From: a virus
Taxonomy: Duplodnaviria > Caudoviricetes
Reading direction: 5' to 3' (one strand)
Virus record (IMG/VR): IMGVR_UViG_3300034062_006701
DNA: 64,000 nucleotides
Below are positions 13,265 to 61,223 of the stretch, piece by piece. The notes beneath the pieces are model-generated. The model did no database searches. It was not told where the DNA came from and saw only the letters and a list, made by a program, of their open reading frames with translations. The first letter of the stretch is position 1; the number at the start of each line of letters is the position of its first letter. A program made the position numbers and the translations under genes.

Positions 13265-16200
13265 GCTGTCACGTCGTAACCGAATGTAAAGGTGTTATCT
13301 GCGGCGTTAAAGTAACCTGCTGCAGATCCAAGCGTTGTATACGTTTCGAGATATGGGCTGCCTTGCGGGTTACCAAAAGTAATGTCATATACATCTATAA
13401 CAGGTGTGTGTAAGGTACATGTAATGTTCTGTACTGTGTTATTAACGTATCTAAATCGTGTAGTTACAATGTAGAAGCAATCTGCTGTATCTTTACCGAG
13501 GTATGTAAGGGTATAAAAGCCTGTTTCAGGGCTAAAGTTAAATACTGGCTTTTCAATTTCCACAATATTGAGTTCAATACCTTTACCGTTCAATGAGAAT
13601 ACACTTAAATCGTTGAATACAAGATCTGATACCGCTTTTGCAGGGTATATTTCACTTATTTGCTGGTTATTTAAATTAATTCTGTATATCGTGGGGTATA
13701 CAACCTTATAATTTGAAGCGCTTAAACTATCACGTAATAAAGTTGTCTTACAGAACATAAGAGTGTTGTCACTTTCGTTGAACCACACATTAGAGAACCG
13801 TTCTAAGTCCGGTAATTCACCGCGGTTAAAGTATCTAAATTCATTTACCGATCCGGTAATACTGTTTGTATTATAGTCAAACTGCAGTCTATCGAAAATT
13901 AAATAGTTCTCTGTTTCAAGCTGCAAGACATCGTAGTAAACTTCAAAATTAATGAGCTTGTTGTATATTTCTTCTTTTATGTTCTGTGGATAATTTAATA
14001 GCGCTGCACTTAATGTAGCAGATGCCGGTCCAATGGTTGTACTGTTAGCGTTTCTAAAGTAAAGATCACCGTATTCTACAGCTCTTGTGTAGTAGAGCGG
14101 TTTCTTTGTAGAAACTGTATTAATTGATGTGTCTAACACTGTTTCATGGCCGGTCTGTCTTATATCTTTAAAATTGGACGGCTCTGTGTATGAATGTGTA
14201 TAAGAACCTAATGTACAGGGTTCGCTGTCCAACGAGTCTATATAAAATACATTTCCATCATAATCAAACCCGTTATATGAAAGAGCATCTAAACTAAAGT
14301 CAGGTTGATACGTAAATGTACCAACACCATAAGGTGCGTTAGGCGCGGGTGCACCGTCAGTTAATTCGTTATAATATAGTAAACCGGTATTCGGGTTATA
14401 TGATACAATGTCACTCGGAACATCTGGTAACATACCGTTATTATTCTTTGTAAAGTATAAGCCATCCTTTACTGTACATGTATATGTCGTTGTGACAAAA
14501 TCTTCAAAAAGATCTTCATATAAGAAATTACTCGCGAAATCATATGATGTGATAATAGTAGGATTACCACCATCGGAAAAGCTTGCTGGTTCTGATACAC
14601 TCGTGTTTAATACGACGCCAGAAAATATCTTACCATTTGATGCTGTACCTGCAACAGTATAATTAAAATTATATCCTTGACCGCATAGAGAATCGAAGAA
14701 AGTGTAGCCATCGAAAATATAATTAACTAATGCTCTAGGACGTGAAATATCGGAGACACGGCTCATCTCTGATACGCTCTTATAAAGAGCATATTCATTA
14801 CCGTAGACGTCACCCTTATACTGAAATAGAGTCTTATTCAGAGTTAGTAGATTGCTTTGTCGTAGATCTATTGGGTATTGGCTAATTAATTCTAACGGGT
14901 ATACATCGGGATTGCTCCATAGTGTATCTTGACTACCTGTAAAGAAATCCTGCGAGTCAATATATCGTGAGACACCGAAGTTTGTATGATTTAACGTTTG
15001 TTCACGTGATTGATATGCGCGAAATGTTTGAAAGTACGGATCTGTACTGGCGTCACCAAACTTATATTGGTTTGAATAATCAGTCTTATTAAAATAATTT
15101 TCTTCAAAAAACGTTAAAGGTGATTTGAACTCCAGCTTTGTATTACCAGAAATATTTCCGTACTTAGCGGGATCCGGAAAGTAGTAGACAGTATCTGGTG
15201 ACAGTGCATCGACGTTAACGAATGATGTGAATTTAAAATTAGTAAAATTAGCTAGTCCGATTTTATCAGGTTTAAAGAATAAACCAAGCTCGTACCCGGT
15301 TTTGAGAAATTCTTCACTCGGTACTGCAGCAATAGAGGGGTAACGCTTGTTTAAATAGTTTGCAAACTCTGTATCAGCGGTAAATAGTTGACCGGATGTA
15401 AAGGCTGTTGTTGTATCTGTTACAATATAATAAAAATCTGACCCGATATATTTGGTGATTTCTTGAGATTTGTTTACTAGATTTAAGTTATTTACGTCAC
15501 CGTCATTTACAGTGCTGATGAAGTCACTGTCTTTTAGTAGATTTAACTGAGAAGAGTTTACAAGCGGGTCTATAGTAAAATTACCGTCAAGCTCTATAAG
15601 ATAAAACGGATAGGAAAGAATTGACCGCAGAATGCTCTGATCAAAATTACCGAACAGATATGGATCTACATCATTTTGATTTAAATTAAAATAATCATTT
15701 CTTAACCCGGTATTTGTATCGTAAGCAGAGGCAGGTAACGTCGGACTTAAATCATAATAATCCGCATACGTATCATATAAATCCTCTACATCTATAACGA
15801 TATTATTGCGTACGTCAGCTAGGGATAAATTTAACGTACTGAATAAATCAACAATATCCTGTGCCTGCAGAGCTTTTGTGAGGTTTACATAAATTAAATC
15901 TGCAATACCGGTATTTGATCCCTTTAAGTTAAAACTCAAGGCAGAAGTCTGAACATCATCTCTTAATGTACTGTAATAAATGCAAATATCTTTAATTTTT
16001 TTTGCAAAGAAAGGTACAGCGATTGCAAGGTCTCGGTTATTACTAATGTCGATATTTTTGAGATATCTTTTTTCGTCAGTTGTTGTATAGTTAATGACGA
16101 TGTCATTAATAAGATTTGTGTAATATTTTTGTATCTCTGTTACAGCTTCTTGCTTTGTGATATCCTTTGCAGCATACCAATTTGTAAGATATGATTGATA

Positions 16201-51420: not shown

Positions 51421-52737
51421 TTATTCACTTGATAGAGAAGCGAGTGCATTAATAGTTGATGCACTCGCTGCAGTATCGTTTATATGCTCATCCTCACTCA
51501 ATGTCAGTGTTGAATAATCTATGCGCATAATGCATTGCCCGAAATTTGGTCCGAACCGATTTTTCATCATCCCCATTTTAATTACACCTAATTCACGGTC
51601 TGTCGGCTCCTGCCATATACTCATAAGGACATCAGCTGTGTGAGCAAGCCCCATACTCTCTGAAATAGTATTCATGCCTGGATCTGATGTACCATACCCG
51701 CTTCGGTTAAGCTGAGTCGCGGAGATGATAGGGCAATTAAAGATATATGTAAGTGACCGTAGTTGTTCGGTTATTTTTTTAACCTTTTCATAACTATTAC
51801 TTTCACCGGGGTAGTGAAGTAGATTGACGTAGTCGAGTACAATCGCGTCAAATTTCATACCCTTATTTCGTAATTTCTTAATATACGATTGAAGAAATCC
51901 GACAGTAATAGATGAAGGCGGAAACTCTTTAATTAAAATTTTAGCCTCAGGATTACCGGAAGCGTACTCTTCAAGAGCGTTCTTTAATGTTGGTACTTCT
52001 GTTTTAATTTTACTGAGAGGTATTTTTGTTATATTTGAGCTTAGTCTCTGCGCATATATCATTTCAGGCATTTCAAGTGAAATAAGTAACACACTCTTTC
52101 CTTGCTTTGCAATATTAATTGCTACATTACCGAGAAAAATACTCTTACCAATATTCGTTTCACCTGTAAACACATACATTGCTCTACCTTCCTGAAGAAA
52201 CCCTCCACCTATTCTTTCATCTAACCACGTCCAGCCTGTTGGGATAAAATTAACTTGTGAATTTAGATTATCGGCAATTGCATCTACTTCGTTAAACAGA
52301 TCTAATCCAACTTCTGTCGTTAGAGAAATATTACAAGCAACTTCAAACTTTTCTAAAACTTGCGTTGTATCCATGTCTGGCTTCTCAACGACTTCAAGCA
52401 TTGTATGATACACAGCTTTTTCCTTTAGAAAAGTTTCTGTATTTTGATACAGCTCATCAGTGTTAATATTTTTATCTATACCCTTAAATCCTTCGACGGT
52501 CCTTTTAAAGGAATCTTTGAGCTCTGTTGTTGTAAGACAGGCCTTTATTTCTGTTAACGTTGGGCATGTATTGCGCCTATTAAAAAAATCTTTTATAATT
52601 TCAAAAACCGGTTTAATGTCCTTATCCTTAAAGTAAGCCGGTTTCACATAATCAACGATAGAAGCAAGATACGTCTCGTCTGTTAGTGCTCTATGCACCA
52701 TGACCTTTTCAAAATAATCGTGATCAATCTTTGACAT
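51421..52737 (-). CDS. gp41: Replicative DNA helicase gp41 (DnaB family)
   Basis: Walker A GETNIGKS, ISLEM, IVLDYVNL, SATQLNRSG, SESMGLAHTAD, KNRFG. Confidence 0.95.
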   Translation of the reverse strand: MSKIDHDYFEKVMVHRALTDETYLASIVDYVKPAYFKDKDIKPVFEIIKDFFNRRNTCPTLTEIKACLTTTELKDSFKRTVEGFKGIDKNINTDELYQNTETFLKEKAVYHTMLEVVEKPDMDTTQVLEKFEVACNISLTTEVGLDLFNEVDAIADNLNSQVNFIPTGWTWLDERIGGGFLQEGRAMYVFTGETNIGKSIFLGNVAINIAKQGKSVLLISLEMPEMIYAQRLSSNITKIPLSKIKTEVPTLKNALEEYASGNPEAKILIKEFPPSSITVGFLQSYIKKLRNKGMKFDAIVLDYVNLLHYPGESNSYEKVKKITEQLRSLTYIFNCPIISATQLNRSGYGTSDPGMNTISESMGLAHTADVLMSIWQEPTDRELGVIKMGMMKNRFGPNFGQCIMRIDYSTLTLSEDEHINDTAASASTINALASLSSE

Positions 52738-52763: not shown

Positions 52764-53444
52764 TTAATAGCTAGCATACTCTTGTAAAAACTTTGATTGG
52801 TTTTCAACGAATGTTTTATCATTAATATCTCTCAACCCAGGTGAATTATGGTACGATAAAATCGGTACAACTCCAATCTTAAGTTTTTTCTTATTAGCGT
52901 CTATGCAACTCGAGATATCGTAATGGTGAAATGTATAGTTCTCGTTGAACATCCATTTTACTTCTTTAGTTTTGTTGACGTTAACCGACATAAATGCACC
53001 ATCAATTATTGCAACTCTTGCAGGACTTGGTCCGAAATTTGTTATAGATGTTGTTACACCATCTGGTAGGTAATGACCTGCAAAGCCTCTTAAATTATTA
53101 CCATGAAAGCCTCCGCACATGATATGCCATAGCGCTGGAGCTTTAATAACGGGGTTTAAACCCCCGGCTAAACCAATGATATCGTATTGCTTGTGACCTT
53201 CTTCAAGTTTTGTGAGAAAGCCTGCATCATCAATCCACATATCATCATGGATAAATAGAATTTGTGAGTAGTTCTTAGTAAGAAATTTATTGTACGCCTC
53301 CGATAAGCCTGTTTTATTTTTTGTAACAAATTGCAGTTTATCTAAGAACATTCCACTATTAGACTTCTCGAGTTTAGCGAGGCTTTTATAAAGAAGGGTT
53401 TCCTTATAGTCAGAGTGTTGTGTGCATGAGACAATAGCTATCAT
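52764..53444 (-). CDS. GT-A (family 2-like) glycosyltransferase
   Basis: LSEAYN, FIHDD, IIGLAG, IDGAFM, FHHYDISSC, H-x-S-x-G. Confidence 0.8.
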   Translation of the reverse strand: MIAIVSCTQHSDYKETLLYKSLAKLEKSNSGMFLDKLQFVTKNKTGLSEAYNKFLTKNYSQILFIHDDMWIDDAGFLTKLEEGHKQYDIIGLAGGLNPVIKAPALWHIMCGGFHGNNLRGFAGHYLPDGVTTSITNFGPSPARVAIIDGAFMSVNVNKTKEVKWMFNENYTFHHYDISSCIDANKKKLKIGVVPILSYHNSPGLRDINDKTFVENQSKFLQEYASY

Positions 53445-54127
53445 ATAATAAAAAAGGGTGAATTCTTAATAAAACCGCCAACGGATGTTAATCCTTCCGG
53501 AGTTAACAAATACAATACACCTTCTTCGAGTGGTTCAAGGTTGTTGTCTGGTAGTGAAGAAAAATCATTCGTAAGGAGGTTAGCATATAATGTACTGCCA
53601 GAGCGTGCAATATAAATGTTATGTGATGTTTTACTATATATCCAGAGTCCGAATGTACCTTCAAGCTTCGATAGTGCTGTGCATATTACTTCAACTTCAT
53701 TTCCCGGACACTGTTCTGAATATTTTTCAATTAAAGCAGGTATTACTGATGAGTCCACTTCATTGTATTTTGAAGTATCCTTTATAAGGGCTTTAAGCTT
53801 TAAATCATTAGTCAAAACACCATTATGTGCAACTACCCATTCTCCGCAATAAAATGGATGAGAAGTACTTTCATCAAAGATGCGCTTTGCGCTTGTCGGC
53901 GCCTGGGTGTGTCCGAGATAGAAATAGAAATCTGATGGCTTCATCTGAATATCACTGTTGTTTATAGTCATATTCTTTGACAGCTCGATAGCTCCTTCTT
54001 TCTTTATACATGCATCATACGTGTGGCTAAGAAATAAACCGCCGTATGCGAAGGTACCTCGTTCTCTACCCTTTTGATACAGCTTCGAATATACATTAAA
54101 ATTTGCACTTCCAAAAATTGAACACAT
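53441..54127 (-). CDS. Class II (Ntn) glutamine amidotransferase
   Basis: N-terminal M-C-S-I-F-G nucleophile Cys; LGHTQAPT; HPF; AHNGVLTN; VDSSVI. Confidence 0.88.
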   Translation of the reverse strand: MCSIFGSANFNVYSKLYQKGRERGTFAYGGLFLSHTYDACIKKEGAIELSKNMTINNSDIQMKPSDFYFYLGHTQAPTSAKRIFDESTSHPFYCGEWVVAHNGVLTNDLKLKALIKDTSKYNEVDSSVIPALIEKYSEQCPGNEVEVICTALSKLEGTFGLWIYSKTSHNIYIARSGSTLYANLLTNDFSSLPDNNLEPLEEGVLYLLTPEGLTSVGGFIKNSPFFII

Positions 54128-54168
54128 CTTAATAATATTATACTGTTAAGAATAAATAATTCAAGCAT

Positions 54169-55047
54169 ATGAATACAGACGTTAACCTTATTTTTGAAGC
54201 TTATAGAAATAATATTCTCGGTGAAATGGCCTTACAGGTAAAAGATAAGACAAACGCTGAAAAATCACTTATAGATGCGATTACACACGGCATTGAAACA
54301 AGAACCGGTGATACCTATCTTTTTAAGGGACTACAGGGAGAAGAGTTAAAGCAGAGGGTAGAAGAGTTAGTTGTACCTATCATCAGAGACCTCTTCCAGG
54401 ATGGCGTGTATGCAGGTCGTTCAAGTGGAGATCTTAAAGAGTTAGAATATGATCTTCTCGAGAAGTTAGCGGCTTCAAACCCGAGAGCGAAGTCTCAGTA
54501 TACAGCGAGAATTTTAAGAAGCTTTATCGCTAGCGTCGTTGATGAGGTTGAAGGTTCTGTAGAGCAGGGCGAAACAATAGAAAATGCTTCCGATGATATC
54601 GCAGACGCTGTTGTTGACGGGGCAGAGAAGTCAGACGAAATTGCTCAGTCAGAAGCTCCAAGTGATTCAGAACAAGAACCGGTAGCAGCTCCATCAGACC
54701 GTATTACAACAAGAATTGAAAAACTAATCGCTGATCTCGTTGATGATTCAGGTGTTCTCGAGACAGGTGTCGTTAAGGACGTGGGGCAGCAAATTCTTGA
54801 TAGCGGTGGTCTTGGTCTTCAGGAGGGTCAAATTACCGGTAAGGTTAAAGCTATCGTCAATGACCTCGTTAAAAAGCAGGTATTTGAAAGAAAGGGCCAG
54901 TATTTAAAGCTCGGCAGTAATTTTGAAAAATTCGAGCAAGGTGGTAGTGACTCTTCTGTTTTATCCGATGAAGATTTAATAACTACTGTCACTGGCTACG
55001 GTCAACGACCAACATCAGGTCGCGAGTTCTGGGGTGGACAAGAATAA
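54169..55047 (+). CDS. Acidic late protein with capsid-targeting-like leader and possible C-terminal winged helix
   Basis: MNTDVNLIFE-AY. TAAATA upstream. C-terminal VKAIVNDLVKKQVFERKGQYLKLG resembles a helix plus wing. Confidence 0.65.
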   Translation: MNTDVNLIFEAYRNNILGEMALQVKDKTNAEKSLIDAITHGIETRTGDTYLFKGLQGEELKQRVEELVVPIIRDLFQDGVYAGRSSGDLKELEYDLLEKLAASNPRAKSQYTARILRSFIASVVDEVEGSVEQGETIENASDDIADAVVDGAEKSDEIAQSEAPSDSEQEPVAAPSDRITTRIEKLIADLVDDSGVLETGVVKDVGQQILDSGGLGLQEGQITGKVKAIVNDLVKKQVFERKGQYLKLGSNFEKFEQGGSDSSVLSDEDLITTVTGYGQRPTSGREFWGGQE

Positions 55048-55053
55048 TTCGAT

Positions 55054-55752
55054 CTAGTCGATTAACTTCTCCCATGGAATACTCTTTGAATAAGAGAGTG
55101 GGTCTCTAGTTCCTGCTTGTATAAACCCTTGAAGGCGTAAAGAGCAAGCCGTGCATTCACCGCACGCTGTGTCAGTACCTTCATAACAAGTCCATGTCTG
55201 GTTAAAATCAACGCCTAATGATATACCCATTTCAATAATTTCCTGCTTTGATTTTGTAATTAACGGTGCCTCTATATTAATTTTATTCATGCGATTTAAC
55301 TTTATAACATCGTTAATTGCATGAATAAATGAATCCGCACCATCCCAAAAACCTGCAACACTATCAGCCTGTGCGGCTCCGTGATAAACAGTACTTGCAC
55401 CAAAGCTCTCTGCAAACGAGCATGCAATACTTAACAACATCATGTTTCTAAACGGTACATAATTTACTGTTTGCGCCTCGCCGCATACGTCTCTTGTCTT
55501 AGCTACATTAATACTGTGGTCAGTTAGTGACGATGCACCTATGTCCTTAAAAAATGGTAAGTTAATAATTTGATGCTTGCGGATTTTATCCTTTAAAGCA
55601 TTTACCTGAAATTGTGCGCATTCGAGCTCTTTAATATGTCTCTGACCATAATCAAAAGAGATAGCATACACGTCGTCATAATTCGCAGCTGCATGGTGTA
55701 GTAACACAGTACTATCCATACCACCGGAAATTGGCACAACAACGCCGCTCAT
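55054..55752 (-). CDS. queC: QueC-family 7-cyano-7-deazaguanine synthase
   Basis: SGGMDS PP-loop, FDYGQRH, YVPFRN, Zn site TWTCY...CGECTAC..R. Confidence 0.92.
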   Translation of the reverse strand: MSGVVVPISGGMDSTVLLHHAAANYDDVYAISFDYGQRHIKELECAQFQVNALKDKIRKHQIINLPFFKDIGASSLTDHSINVAKTRDVCGEAQTVNYVPFRNMMLLSIACSFAESFGASTVYHGAAQADSVAGFWDGADSFIHAINDVIKLNRMNKINIEAPLITKSKQEIIEMGISLGVDFNQTWTCYEGTDTACGECTACSLRLQGFIQAGTRDPLSYSKSIPWEKLID

Positions 55753-56882
55753 TATTCTACTTCTGCCTCAACTGTATCATCCACAATCTCACTATCAGCT
55801 TGATGGTATCTGTAATCTTCCTTAAGAGCTTTATCGAGCGCAGGTATTATAAATTCTTCATAAAAATTTGCATCTTTAGTAAAGTTTTTGGCATACCCGA
55901 GCTTATCACCTTTCTTATACTTACCACCATCAACACCAATTGTGTATGTTGCACCGTTTTGTTCTACAATACCACGTGAAGCAGCCATTGCGAGAAGACC
56001 GCTATACTTATTGAGGCCTGACTTAAATGAGAGATACATTTCAATCTCAAGAAATTGAGGAATAAATCGGTTCTTTGCAGTTAATGCACGGAGAGTTACT
56101 CCACTGTATTTGTTGGCTTCTGATAGTTTTTCATCTTCAACGTTAGAGAACTCACCTTCACCGGCTTTCTCATTTCTCTTCGCAAGCTGTACTAGGATGC
56201 TCGCCATATAAACCGGGCCAGATCCGCCAGCCTGTGACTTAATCAACGATGGATACATCGCTGCAGGGTCAGAATATGTATGATTAACAAATAATATTGT
56301 TGTTTGCGCTTTTGCAGCCTTATAGGTTAGTGTTCGAAGCATCGATTTCAATGCTTTAGCGCGCATACCCATATCCACCGCAGACTTGTCCTTCAATGCG
56401 TCGTCAAGTTCCTTTTGTGATGCTAGATTACCCAGACTATCAATGCAGATTATTATCTTACCATGTTGGTTATTCGCTATCACTTTATCTAAAAGTGCTG
56501 ATACTTGATTACGACACTTCTCGATTGTATCGATTGGTACGTATTTCACTCTTTCAGGATCAAGACCTACACCGCGTACAGAGTTTTTATCAACAGCGAT
56601 CTCAGAGTCAAAAATAACCGGGATAACACCCTTTTTCTGAGCGTTTGCAAGAATCTTACCTGTAATGAGAGTTTTACCTGTACCGGATTCACCGCTAAAG
56701 CCTATAATTCTACCCTTAGGTACTCCGCCATTTCGAAGATCACCAGTAAGAATAGCATTTAAGGCATAGCACCCTGTATCAAAGCATTCAGTAAAGTTAC
56801 TAAGAGCGTTTTCAGAGAGAAAACATGCATCTGAATTATGCTCGTCAATGATTGCTAGAGTCTTGAGTAGGTCTTTATCCAT
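55752..56882 (-). CDS. uvsX: RecA-like recombinase UvsX
   Basis: DTGCYALNAILTG, Walker A GESGTGKT, FDSE, IDSLGNL, VNHTY. Confidence 0.93.
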   Translation of the reverse strand: MDKDLLKTLAIIDEHNSDACFLSENALSNFTECFDTGCYALNAILTGDLRNGGVPKGRIIGFSGESGTGKTLITGKILANAQKKGVIPVIFDSEIAVDKNSVRGVGLDPERVKYVPIDTIEKCRNQVSALLDKVIANNQHGKIIICIDSLGNLASQKELDDALKDKSAVDMGMRAKALKSMLRTLTYKAAKAQTTILFVNHTYSDPAAMYPSLIKSQAGGSGPVYMASILVQLAKRNEKAGEGEFSNVEDEKLSEANKYSGVTLRALTAKNRFIPQFLEIEMYLSFKSGLNKYSGLLAMAASRGIVEQNGATYTIGVDGGKYKKGDKLGYAKNFTKDANFYEEFIIPALDKALKEDYRYHQADSEIVDDTVEAEVE

Positions 56883-56889
56883 ATCACAT

Positions 56890-56917
56890 ATTGTAGTATA
56901 TCAAATAATGTAATCAA
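56890..56917 (-). promoter_or_regulatory. Sigma70-like promoter for uvsX-queC
   Basis: TTGATT-16-TACAAT, 7 nt before ATG, abutting the upstream terminator. Confidence 0.65.
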
Positions 56918-56955
56918 CAAAAAAAAAAACACCCGTAGCTATAGCTACGGGTGTT
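56918..56955 (-). terminator. Intrinsic terminator built on a perfect 28-bp palindrome
   Basis: AACACCCGTAGCTATAGCTACGGGTGTT (56928-56955) with an A-run on its left, giving a long U tract on the minus strand. Confidence 0.9.
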
Positions 56956-59980: not shown

Positions 59981-60009
59981 AGTATATTATACTACATATG
60001 CGTGATCAA
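59981..60009 (-). promoter_or_regulatory. Sigma70-like promoter for DNA polymerase
   Basis: TTGATC-17-TATACT, 6 nt before GTG. Confidence 0.7.
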
Positions 60010-61223
60010 GCTACAATACCGTTTACGGCGTTGAGCAGTTTCCTGTCACGGTGTCCGAAGGGAAGTGTATGAAGCTCAACATATTTGTTAATATTATCCT
60101 CATTCTCGAGCCAGCGACCATCAGCTAGTTTCCGCATTTTTGATGATATATTCATGTACCGGCCTTTCTTTGAAAGGACATCATCAACGATATCTATCAT
60201 CTCCTCGCCAGTATCAAACTTGTACGGAGCATTTTCGTACGTGACAATGTTCTGGCACGCAATAGGAAGACCGTAACTACATGCTTCAACAAACTTAAGA
60301 TCTGACTTTGCTTTATTGAACGTATTGTCCTGGAGAGGTGCAACCATCATGTTGACATTTAAGTTCGCAATCTTCTCTGGATACCTGTAGAGTGTCTCCC
60401 AGGGGTGATACTCGAATTCTCTACTCTGTATAAGATCTTGCAACGGGAGAGGATATGCACCTAAGAACACCCATTGATACTTGTCTTTTGTTGCACGGAT
60501 AACACGATTAACATGAGCGAAGTCATCATTCTGACCTACGCGGTTATCTACATCAAAGTGTGCTCCAGAGCCTGCGTATAGAATGCGTGGTTTTTTCTGA
60601 TAACGGTCGTAGTTATCAGAAATCTTCTTTTCATTATAAAAATTACCCATCCAAAACTTTGGCGGGTAATTCGGTATTACAGTGACGTTTTTATTGGACG
60701 TCTTGCTCATGTAATACTCCTTCATGAAATCACATGTTACTGTAACTTCATCACATAGCTCCATAATTTCCTGTGCTGTTTTTCGTATTTGTGGGTCAGT
60801 AAACGCGGGTTTAAATTTATTGTATTCCGGGATATCCTCACTGAATACAAGATCGTCAATCTCGTAAATAATTCTAAAACCTAGATCTTTACTAAGCTTC
60901 TTTAAAAATTTAATAAATTCTAATTGATGTACTGTAGCTTGTCTTTGTATGCGAACACATTCAGCACCTCTAAAGTAATTGGGATCAAAACACATCATCG
61001 TACTACCGTGAACGACCATTTTCTGATGTGCATTTAGAATATGCTCAGGCCAGATCATTCGCCAAAAACCACACCCACTATAGTCAGCATAATAATTCAT
61101 TACACGTTTAAGTGTTAGTTCTGGTGGTTGTGGTATAATAGGCGCTACAGGCTGTATCGGTTGCAGTCCAAAAGGTGAAACAAACGGCGACGCAAACGGT
61201 GATACAAAGGGACTTGAATTCAT
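60006..61223 (-). CDS. GT-B-type glycosyltransferase
   Basis: ADYSGCGFWRMIWP, YEIDD, VTVIPNY, APLQDNTFNKAKSDLKFVEACSYGLPI. Confidence 0.85.
   Translation of the reverse strand: MNSSPFVSPFASPFVSPFGLQPIQPVAPIIPQPPELTLKRVMNYYADYSGCGFWRMIWPEHILNAHQKMVVHGSTMMCFDPNYFRGAECVRIQRQATVHQLEFIKFLKKLSKDLGFRIIYEIDDLVFSEDIPEYNKFKPAFTDPQIRKTAQEIMELCDEVTVTCDFMKEYYMSKTSNKNVTVIPNYPPKFWMGNFYNEKKISDNYDRYQKKPRILYAGSGAHFDVDNRVGQNDDFAHVNRVIRATKDKYQWVFLGAYPLPLQDLIQSREFEYHPWETLYRYPEKIANLNVNMMVAPLQDNTFNKAKSDLKFVEACSYGLPIACQNIVTYENAPYKFDTGEEMIDIVDDVLSKKGRYMNISSKMRKLADGRWLENEDNINKYVELHTLPFGHRDRKLLNAVNGIVA

Follow-up and report, generated by a model that had tools for sequence, protein, structure and literature searches.

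Why does a bacteriophage keep a free-standing glutamine amidotransferase and a small glycosyltransferase close to queC, the gene for 7-cyano-7-deazaguanine (preQ0) synthase? This question is raised by a 64,000-nucleotide (nt) stretch of DNA from the IMG/VR record IMGVR_UViG_3300034062_006701 (Caudoviricetes), referred to here as the window. Replacement with 7-deazaguanines is a major route by which phages escape restriction and CRISPR cutting. The initial annotation of the window had proposed that the amidotransferase and QueC act as a two-chain enzyme that makes archaeosine, with a glycosyltransferase that could decorate the base or another substrate. Our data indicate, from gene neighbourhoods, that the amidotransferase accompanies QueC widely among phages, a link that had so far gone unremarked, and that the phage behind the window encodes a whole pathway for 7-deazaguanine DNA replacement. 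The best explanation overall, to which we give about an even chance, is a complete pathway of the formyl-preQ1 (fdPreQ1) type in which the amidotransferase would feed ammonia to QueC and the glycosyltransferase would add a sugar.

We found that the protein encoded at 53441..54127 (minus strand, 228 amino acids (aa)) has the features and the predicted fold of a stand-alone class II (N-terminal nucleophile, Ntn) glutamine amidotransferase. It matches GATase_6 (E 4e-9) and starts MCSIFG, which places Cys2 directly after Met1. Across 40 diverse homologues, C2, G24, H73, P91, N102, G103, and D125 are invariant, and in a hidden Markov model alignment N102, G103, and D125 correspond to GlmS N98, G99, and D123, the oxyanion hole and the aspartate that contacts the amino group of glutamine. 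The AlphaFold model (model confidence, pLDDT, 92.5) has as its best PDB match 1xff, the glutaminase domain of GlmS (template modelling (TM) score 0.73, E 9e-12), and this match supports a four-layer alpha-beta-beta-alpha Ntn fold. The glutaminase fold and the catalytic set (Cys1, Asn-Gly oxyanion hole, Asp) are shared with PurF and GlmS; in those enzymes a synthase domain is fused to the glutaminase, whereas the phage protein has no fused acceptor domain. Relative to GlmS, the phage protein also carries Gln at position 75 in place of Arg73, and its family has a C-terminal tail of its own, which reads SPFF here and S/N-P-F/Y-F/Y across the family. The family comprises 795 cluster representatives at E<=0.001, nearly all of them stand-alone proteins of about 205-240 aa. 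Rosetta-stone fusions were sought among the longer members (P0371, P0389, P0390, and others), and these carry the amidotransferase domain only; a single-protein scan of IMG/VR found nothing. The assignment of QueC (55054..55752, minus strand) is firm, with a match to PF06508 at E 6e-63 and a TIGR00364 equivalog score of 184.5 bits against a cut-off of 150.3. QueC keeps the SGGMDS PP-loop and a C-x8-C-x2-C-x2-C zinc motif, and both SGGMDS and C189, C197, C200, and C203 are invariant.

We next asked whether the rest of a 7-deazaguanine pathway is encoded by the same phage. The source is an uncultured freshwater T4-like phage with a circularly permuted genome of about 221.6 kb. It is a distant member of this group (PolB identity with cyanomyophages is about 30%), and its genes include those for gp32, UvsX, UvsY, gp46/47, gp15, gp20, and gp23. 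An identical amidotransferase occurs on many freshwater metagenome contigs, and a near-identity DNA search gave no match among cultured phages. To read beyond the window end, we used a Joint Genome Institute (JGI) metagenome contig of 121,143 bp that matches the window at 100% over 20,560 nt, and followed it stepwise by six protein look-ups. The initial annotation had called its pathway unproven, with folE, queD, queE, and dpdA not seen in the window; all four are present on this same genome, together with queF and a DpdN-like gene. FolE lies approximately 7.5 kb past the window end (PF01227, E 8e-48), QueD approximately 9.8 kb (PTPS, E 2e-14), and a QueE-like radical S-adenosylmethionine enzyme approximately 11.7 kb (TIGR03963, E 8e-14). 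Approximately 37-41 kb past the end is an operon that encodes, in order, a DpdA3-like protein of 270 aa, a PurN-like formyltransferase (DpdN-like; Formyl_trans_N/PurN, E 2e-14), a 115-aa protein, a P-loop kinase, and a two-domain QueF (TIGR03138, E 6e-53). The DpdA3-like protein (L014:7737-8549) shows 41% identity (E 3e-54) with the protein annotated as DNA guanine transglycosylase in Flavobacterium phage immuto and 44% identity with its CP220 counterpart; Campylobacter phage CP220 is among the DpdA3-encoding phages (PMC10516641). With FolE, QueD, QueE, QueC, QueF, a DpdN-like enzyme, and DpdA3 all identified by sequence, the pathway is proven complete at gene level.

Immuto is the closest guide to the product. 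Its DNA is fully substituted with fdPreQ1 (PMC10516641). All seven pathway functions occur in both phages, and the order DpdA3, formyltransferase (DpdN), kinase, QueF in the immuto operon is also that of the operon described here. The two phages are otherwise unlike: immuto is a 160-kb PolA phage in which neither the amidotransferase nor the glycosyltransferase has a detectable homologue, and the phage of the window is a PolB T4-like phage of about 220 kb. Because the gene set and the operon order match those of immuto, we predict by analogy that the DNA of this phage contains formyl-preQ1. FolE, QueD, QueE, and QueC would make preQ0, QueF would convert it to preQ1, and the DpdN-like formyltransferase and the DNA transglycosylase DpdA3 would act after that. 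As a separate observation, genes for P-loop (thymidylate-kinase-like) kinases, a weak DUF1599-like protein, and phosphoribosyltransferases are found repeatedly in or near DpdA3/QueF operons (L014:9087-10016 and L014:1-10; in immuto L017:9843-10238 and 13481-14005; L104:2425-2943), a hint that the deazaguanine pathway may branch at the nucleotide level.

Is the amidotransferase a regular part of such pathways? We surveyed 240 loci, made up of 80 metagenome loci from the clade of the window and 160 loci from two IMG/VR scans with sub-family alignments. The order queC, amidotransferase, glycosyltransferase, together with the overlap of the latter two genes, was kept in all 26 loci checked in detail and recurs among the 240, and therefore the arrangement is not due to chance. 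The 80 metagenome loci, which form one clade and were counted as one observation, read p405-PolB-p121-UvsX-QueC-(variable spacer of 0.9-3 kb)-amidotransferase-GT-A-DnaB wherever the contig was long enough, GT-A being the glycosyltransferase. The IMG/VR loci fall into a contiguous group and a T4-like spacer group. Within the contiguous group, queC precedes the amidotransferase gene on the same strand in 54 of 55 loci with enough flank, abutting it in 51, and GT-A follows in 70 of 70. The corresponding counts in the T4-like spacer group are 47 of 47 and 66 of 66, and in seven of its loci a DpdN-like formyltransferase gene sits between QueC and the amidotransferase. The short contig L103 reads QueD-amidotransferase-GT-A.

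Other phages have the amidotransferase in deazaguanine clusters of different build. A PolA phage carries QueE-QueD-FolE-QueC-x-amidotransferase-x-x-QueF-DpdN-x-kinase-DpdA3-like, without GT-A. In a 62-kb PolB phage type, also without GT-A, the amidotransferase gene is translationally coupled to a TGT/DpdA gene, and QueD, FolE, and QueC lie 5-9 kb upstream. The TGT-family DpdA of this phage type is unusually long (423-456 aa) and its gene stands directly before that of the DNA polymerase (L104:10001-11988, L106:1635-3621). The amidotransferase gene is also found directly 3' of queC in the cultured phages KVP40, nt-1, phi-Grn1, phi-ST2, VH7D, ValKK3, and Pseudomonas phage pf16, and in KVP40 its start overlaps the queC stop. 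The proteins of the cultured phages match the family profile over their full length at 76-92 bits and have the same tail. KVP40.0125 and pf16 gp77 (Schizotequatrovirus and Chakrabartyvirus) share with the window protein the H-x-QAPT motif, HNG, the N-P-[FY]-[FY] tail, and the place beside QueC; they differ from it in being only 23-30% identical and in having no GT-A gene after them. Their family is phrog_12378, labelled 'unknown function' in PHROGs, and the supplementary table of deazaguanine genes from 2019 names the neighbouring genes, not this amidotransferase (PMC6884629). Literature searches on a QueC glutaminase gave nothing useful. The linkage with QueC that the initial annotation had drawn from a single locus thus holds in relatives and in unrelated phages. 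These data add a conserved free-standing putative glutaminase, present even in the long-known cultured phages KVP40, nt-1, and pf16, to a list of phage 7-deazaguanine enzymes that was thought nearly complete.

QueC is the one enzyme of the pathway that uses ammonia, and we found that it is the only constant partner of the amidotransferase. The genes of the two usually abut or overlap, which is the layout of two subunits. We infer that the amidotransferase would hydrolyse glutamine and pass the ammonia to QueC, and that preQ0 synthesis would thereby become glutamine-dependent. The amidotransferase is read as serving QueC because cultured carriers of the pair contain dPreQ1 and not archaeosine. 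It would then correspond in function, as one of two chains, to the Gat part of the fused enzyme Gat-QueC, probably recruited independently rather than derived from it by splitting, and would not be an archaeosine synthase. Of the earlier two-chain proposal, the pairing of the two proteins is thus well supported by comparative genomics, and the chemistry is likely to be ammonia supply instead. The suggested modelling of a QueC-amidotransferase complex lends weak support, with an interface score (ipSAE) of 0.56 (0.56, 0.52, and 0.58 in separate runs), whereas none of three controls scored above 0.00. The runs agreed in at least 89% of contacts, and partner pLDDT was at least 88. Of 80 solved complexes, 58 reach the mark used for such predictions, as do 2 of 110 mismatched pairs; among these, only 7 of the solved complexes and both of the mismatches have an ipSAE of 0.60 or below. 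If the amidotransferase does feed QueC, phage preQ0 synthesis can be driven by glutamine, which would matter in nitrogen-poor waters and for pathway engineering.

Several points weigh against ammonia supply to QueC, the weakness of the predicted complex among them. QueC from bacteria needs no partner and uses free ammonia. In immuto the DNA is fully substituted with fdPreQ1 although no homologue of the amidotransferase is detectable, and therefore the pathway can run without this protein. GlmS Arg73, which contacts the carboxylate of glutamine, corresponds to Gln75 in the window clade and to Arg in distant members. Many of the loci surveyed belong to T4-like phages that are related to one another and do not count as independent. 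Furthermore, in the window the amidotransferase gene is coupled to the GT-A gene, has a promoter-like site of its own, and is separated from queC by an inverted gene. Owing to this coupling and separation, GT-A could be the real partner of the amidotransferase.

We therefore examined GT-A (52764..53444, minus strand, 226 aa) in the same way. Its PF13712 match spans residues 4-221 of 226 and scores 38 bits against a cut-off of 27. H66-D67-D68 (the DxD motif), H173, Y175, D176, and H199 are invariant. The predicted model (pLDDT 91.5) is most similar to majastridin with UDP (2qgi, TM 0.72), StrF (TM 0.70), and WbbL. GT-A is a minimal soluble enzyme of the GT2 type. Every aquatic T4-like arrangement has its gene after that of the amidotransferase, and the flanking contexts are of three kinds (UvsX-QueC...DnaB, QueC-GATase-GT-A-DUF366, and QueD-GATase-GT-A, where GATase is the amidotransferase). 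KVP40, pf16, and the PolA and 62-kb phages lack it, and a tblastn search with GT-A against cultured phages found nothing. Every GT-A homologue examined adjoins an amidotransferase, and the amidotransferase in turn accompanies QueC in nearly every locus whose flank is long enough. This nested linkage suggests that GT-A uses the amidotransferase or its product. In the preferred reading, GT-A would act as a soluble nucleotide-sugar transferase whose acceptor is probably an intermediate of the pathway or the modified DNA. The phage would recall T4 in having a sugar transferase gene among its replication genes together with modified DNA (predicted here). The T4 enzymes, the alpha- and beta-glucosyltransferases, have a GT-B fold and act on hydroxymethylcytosine in DNA, whereas the window enzyme is GT-A/GT2, and no hydroxymethylase was seen in the approximately 105 kb of this phage that were examined.

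One rival account makes GT-A the client. The amidotransferase and GT-A might form a two-chain PurF-like enzyme, in which ammonia attacks C1 of a nucleotide sugar to yield a glycosylamine, or GT-A might place a sugar on an amide or amidine side chain; the product in either case would be a 7-deazaguanine with a sugar-bearing side chain. The gene overlap is kept through all three flanking contexts, and the nested linkage fits as well. Glycosylamine formation by a class II amidotransferase has a precedent in PurF, and GT-A resembles small-molecule transferases such as StrF. Nevertheless, KVP40, pf16, and the PolA and 62-kb phages have the amidotransferase with no GT-A at all, and therefore the amidotransferase must have another client. 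No GT-A enzyme is known to take ammonia as acceptor, and the lineages with GT-A are all aquatic T4-like phages, such that shared ancestry could explain the linkage. We consider such a PurF-like glycosylamine synthase, or the addition of a sugar to the C7 side chain, improbable. We likewise see only a slight prospect that the pair makes an undescribed sugar-bearing 7-deazaguanine, either from a PurF-like glycosylamine joined to the C7 carboxyl or nitrile or by glycosylation of the C7 side chain. Hundreds of uncultured T4-like phages from fresh water and the sea keep the pair locked to QueC, and if this proposal were true, glycosylated deazapurines of a new class would occur in the DNA of an abundant group of aquatic phages. 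GT-A marks a large aquatic phage group in which further, possibly sugar-bearing, modification is worth seeking.

At L010:15425-16874 lies a gene for a DUF366 protein, and after it one for a gp62-like clamp-loader subunit (phrog_225, E 9e-10); in another phage group these genes stand directly 3' of GT-A. The ESM Atlas model of the DUF366 protein resembles biotin/lipoate-protein ligases (TM 0.61-0.66), and literature searches on DUF366/PF04017 gave nothing useful. A six-gene module QueC-GATase-GT-A-DUF366-p123-p155 was considered and is weakened by p123, which resembles the gp62 clamp-loader subunit; the adjacency of DUF366 and p123 may reflect replication-module synteny.

A further rival, which we also hold to be improbable, is the archaeosine proposal. 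It holds that QueC and the amidotransferase, as a split archaeosine synthase, turn preQ0 into the formamidine base G+, which DpdA then places in DNA as dG+. There is precedent, in that fused Gat-QueC together with DpdA yields dG+ in E. coli (PMC6884629). Among cultured phages, a single match to the window amidotransferase reaches E<=1e-5, and it is to the Gat half of a Gat-QueC, at 27% identity. Gat-QueC (phage 9g, Queuovirinae, Crenarchaeota) likewise pairs a class II Ntn glutaminase with QueC in the 7-deazaguanine pathway, and both glutaminases need a free N-terminal Cys. Gat-QueC is, however, one polypeptide, whereas the window phage and all relatives have separate proteins, encoded in most in the order QueC then amidotransferase. 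The phage pair also differs from Gat-QueC in co-occurring with QueF and DpdN: QueF and a DpdN-like enzyme are encoded in the window genome, and these two enzymes depend on preQ0 and preQ1. In phi-Grn1 and phi-ST2, which have the QueC-amidotransferase pair, published analyses report dPreQ1 and mdPreQ1 in the DNA and no dG+; the DNA of phage 6E35.1a, a relative in which the adjacent amidotransferase gene is unchecked, holds dPreQ1. Moreover, the family profile (A2) scores 56 bits to the Gat domain of R7M Gat-QueC, versus 65-70 bits to E. coli GlmS and 49-53 to PurF, and by sequence the amidotransferase is no closer to the Gat domain than to GlmS. Archaeosine synthesis in this phage is thus unlikely because its genome has QueF and DpdN, phi-Grn1 and phi-ST2 lack dG+, and no special kinship with Gat was found.

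Some relatives may differ in this respect. Among five large IMG/VR genomes with the module, DpdA3 is present in all five and QueF with DpdN in three. One complete genome of 227 kb has QueC-GATase-GT-A and DpdA3 with neither QueF nor DpdN; dG+ is possible there, and its DNA base should therefore differ from the one predicted here. In the 62-kb phage type, no QueF was found in the 20 kb seen, and dG+ is possible there too. FolE (PF01227) was not found in three large relatives with the module and DpdA3 (the records behind L130, L149, and L141, two of them rated complete).

The least probable account, which we hold to be very doubtful, is that GT-A and perhaps also the amidotransferase serve amino-sugar supply or virion or host glycosylation and owe their place in the replication module to inherited synteny: it draws on the GlmS glutaminase domain as the nearest relative of the amidotransferase in sequence and structure, on polysaccharide and O-antigen transferases as structural neighbours of GT-A, and on an island elsewhere in the genome with about 14 genes for glycosyl- and methyltransferases, from which it follows that this phage glycosylates something else, and it is countered by amidotransferases inside deazaguanine clusters of unrelated phages without a glycosylation island, by the missing sugar-isomerase domain, by the position of GT-A outside the island and constantly beside the amidotransferase and QueC, and by the DpdN-like gene between QueC and the amidotransferase in seven loci.

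With regard to the window itself, we recovered the gene order given in the initial annotation: uvsX, queC, an inverted gene, the amidotransferase gene, the GT-A gene, and a helicase gene. UvsX, a RecA-family recombinase (55752..56882, minus strand; PF00154, E 3e-21; phrog_97 UvsX-like, E 1e-61), leads the uvsX-queC unit, and its stop shares 1 nt with the queC ATG (TAATG), in agreement with the coupling first described. The queC and amidotransferase genes are separate, 927 nt apart, with the inverted open reading frame (ORF) in between. The amidotransferase TGA overlaps the GT-A ATG as ATGA, also as first described and as seen in relatives, and GT-A is translationally coupled to the amidotransferase. 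The gene for the DnaB-type replicative helicase (51421..52737, minus strand; PF03796, E 2e-27; phrog_19, E 7e-79) starts 26 nt downstream of the GT-A gene. A divergent intergenic gap of 41 nt on the 5' side of the amidotransferase gene holds a sigma-70-like site, TTGAAT-16-TATAAT (54137..54164, minus strand), with 10 of 12 consensus positions matched. Upstream of uvsX are a terminator-like hairpin (56928-56955) and a promoter-like site (56890-56917), the latter likewise a consensus match only. The promoter-like sites before uvsX and the amidotransferase gene and the hairpin before uvsX suggest two transcription units, uvsX-queC and amidotransferase-GT-A(-dnaB).

The inverted ORF (54169..55047, plus strand) encodes an acidic protein of 292 aa, with 55 Asp and Glu against 31 Lys and Arg, and has no match in Pfam, PHROG, or NCBIfam. 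It sits in the variable spacer of 0.9-3 kb, and its counterparts in relatives are 25-59% identical, replaced, or absent. In L187 and the A6 group the ORF is absent and queC abuts the amidotransferase gene. Since L187 reads UvsX-QueC-amidotransferase-GT-A-DnaB with no spacer, the ORF looks like an insertion, a variable one that probably does not belong to the pathway. It could encode a DNA mimic or another accessory protein. A hidden DpdA was considered for this ORF and rejected: the protein is acidic, matches no family, and varies or is missing in relatives, and the real DpdA3 lies elsewhere.

The glycosyl- and methyltransferase island consists of about 14 same-strand genes approximately 14-25 kb past the window end (L007:15371 to L010:15394). 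It encodes a GT2 enzyme, a GT15 mannosyltransferase-like protein (E 2e-32), Caps_synth/Gly_transf_sug and RXYLT1_C-like proteins, two methyltransferases, and several proteins of 250-280 aa with no assigned function, and represents a large phage-encoded set for building glycans. Head genes lie between this island and the DpdA3 operon on the contig. Among them is a gene for an endonuclease with a Tn7 TnsA-like N-domain (L012:14609-15076), and a SegE-type GIY-YIG endonuclease gene is found near uvsY (L005:6842-7267); both are probably mobile homing endonucleases. Lastly, a 405-aa protein encoded between the gp46-like gene and PolB (60006-61223, minus strand), which has no Pfam match, is better conserved across the clade than PolB, with up to 94% identity versus 84%.

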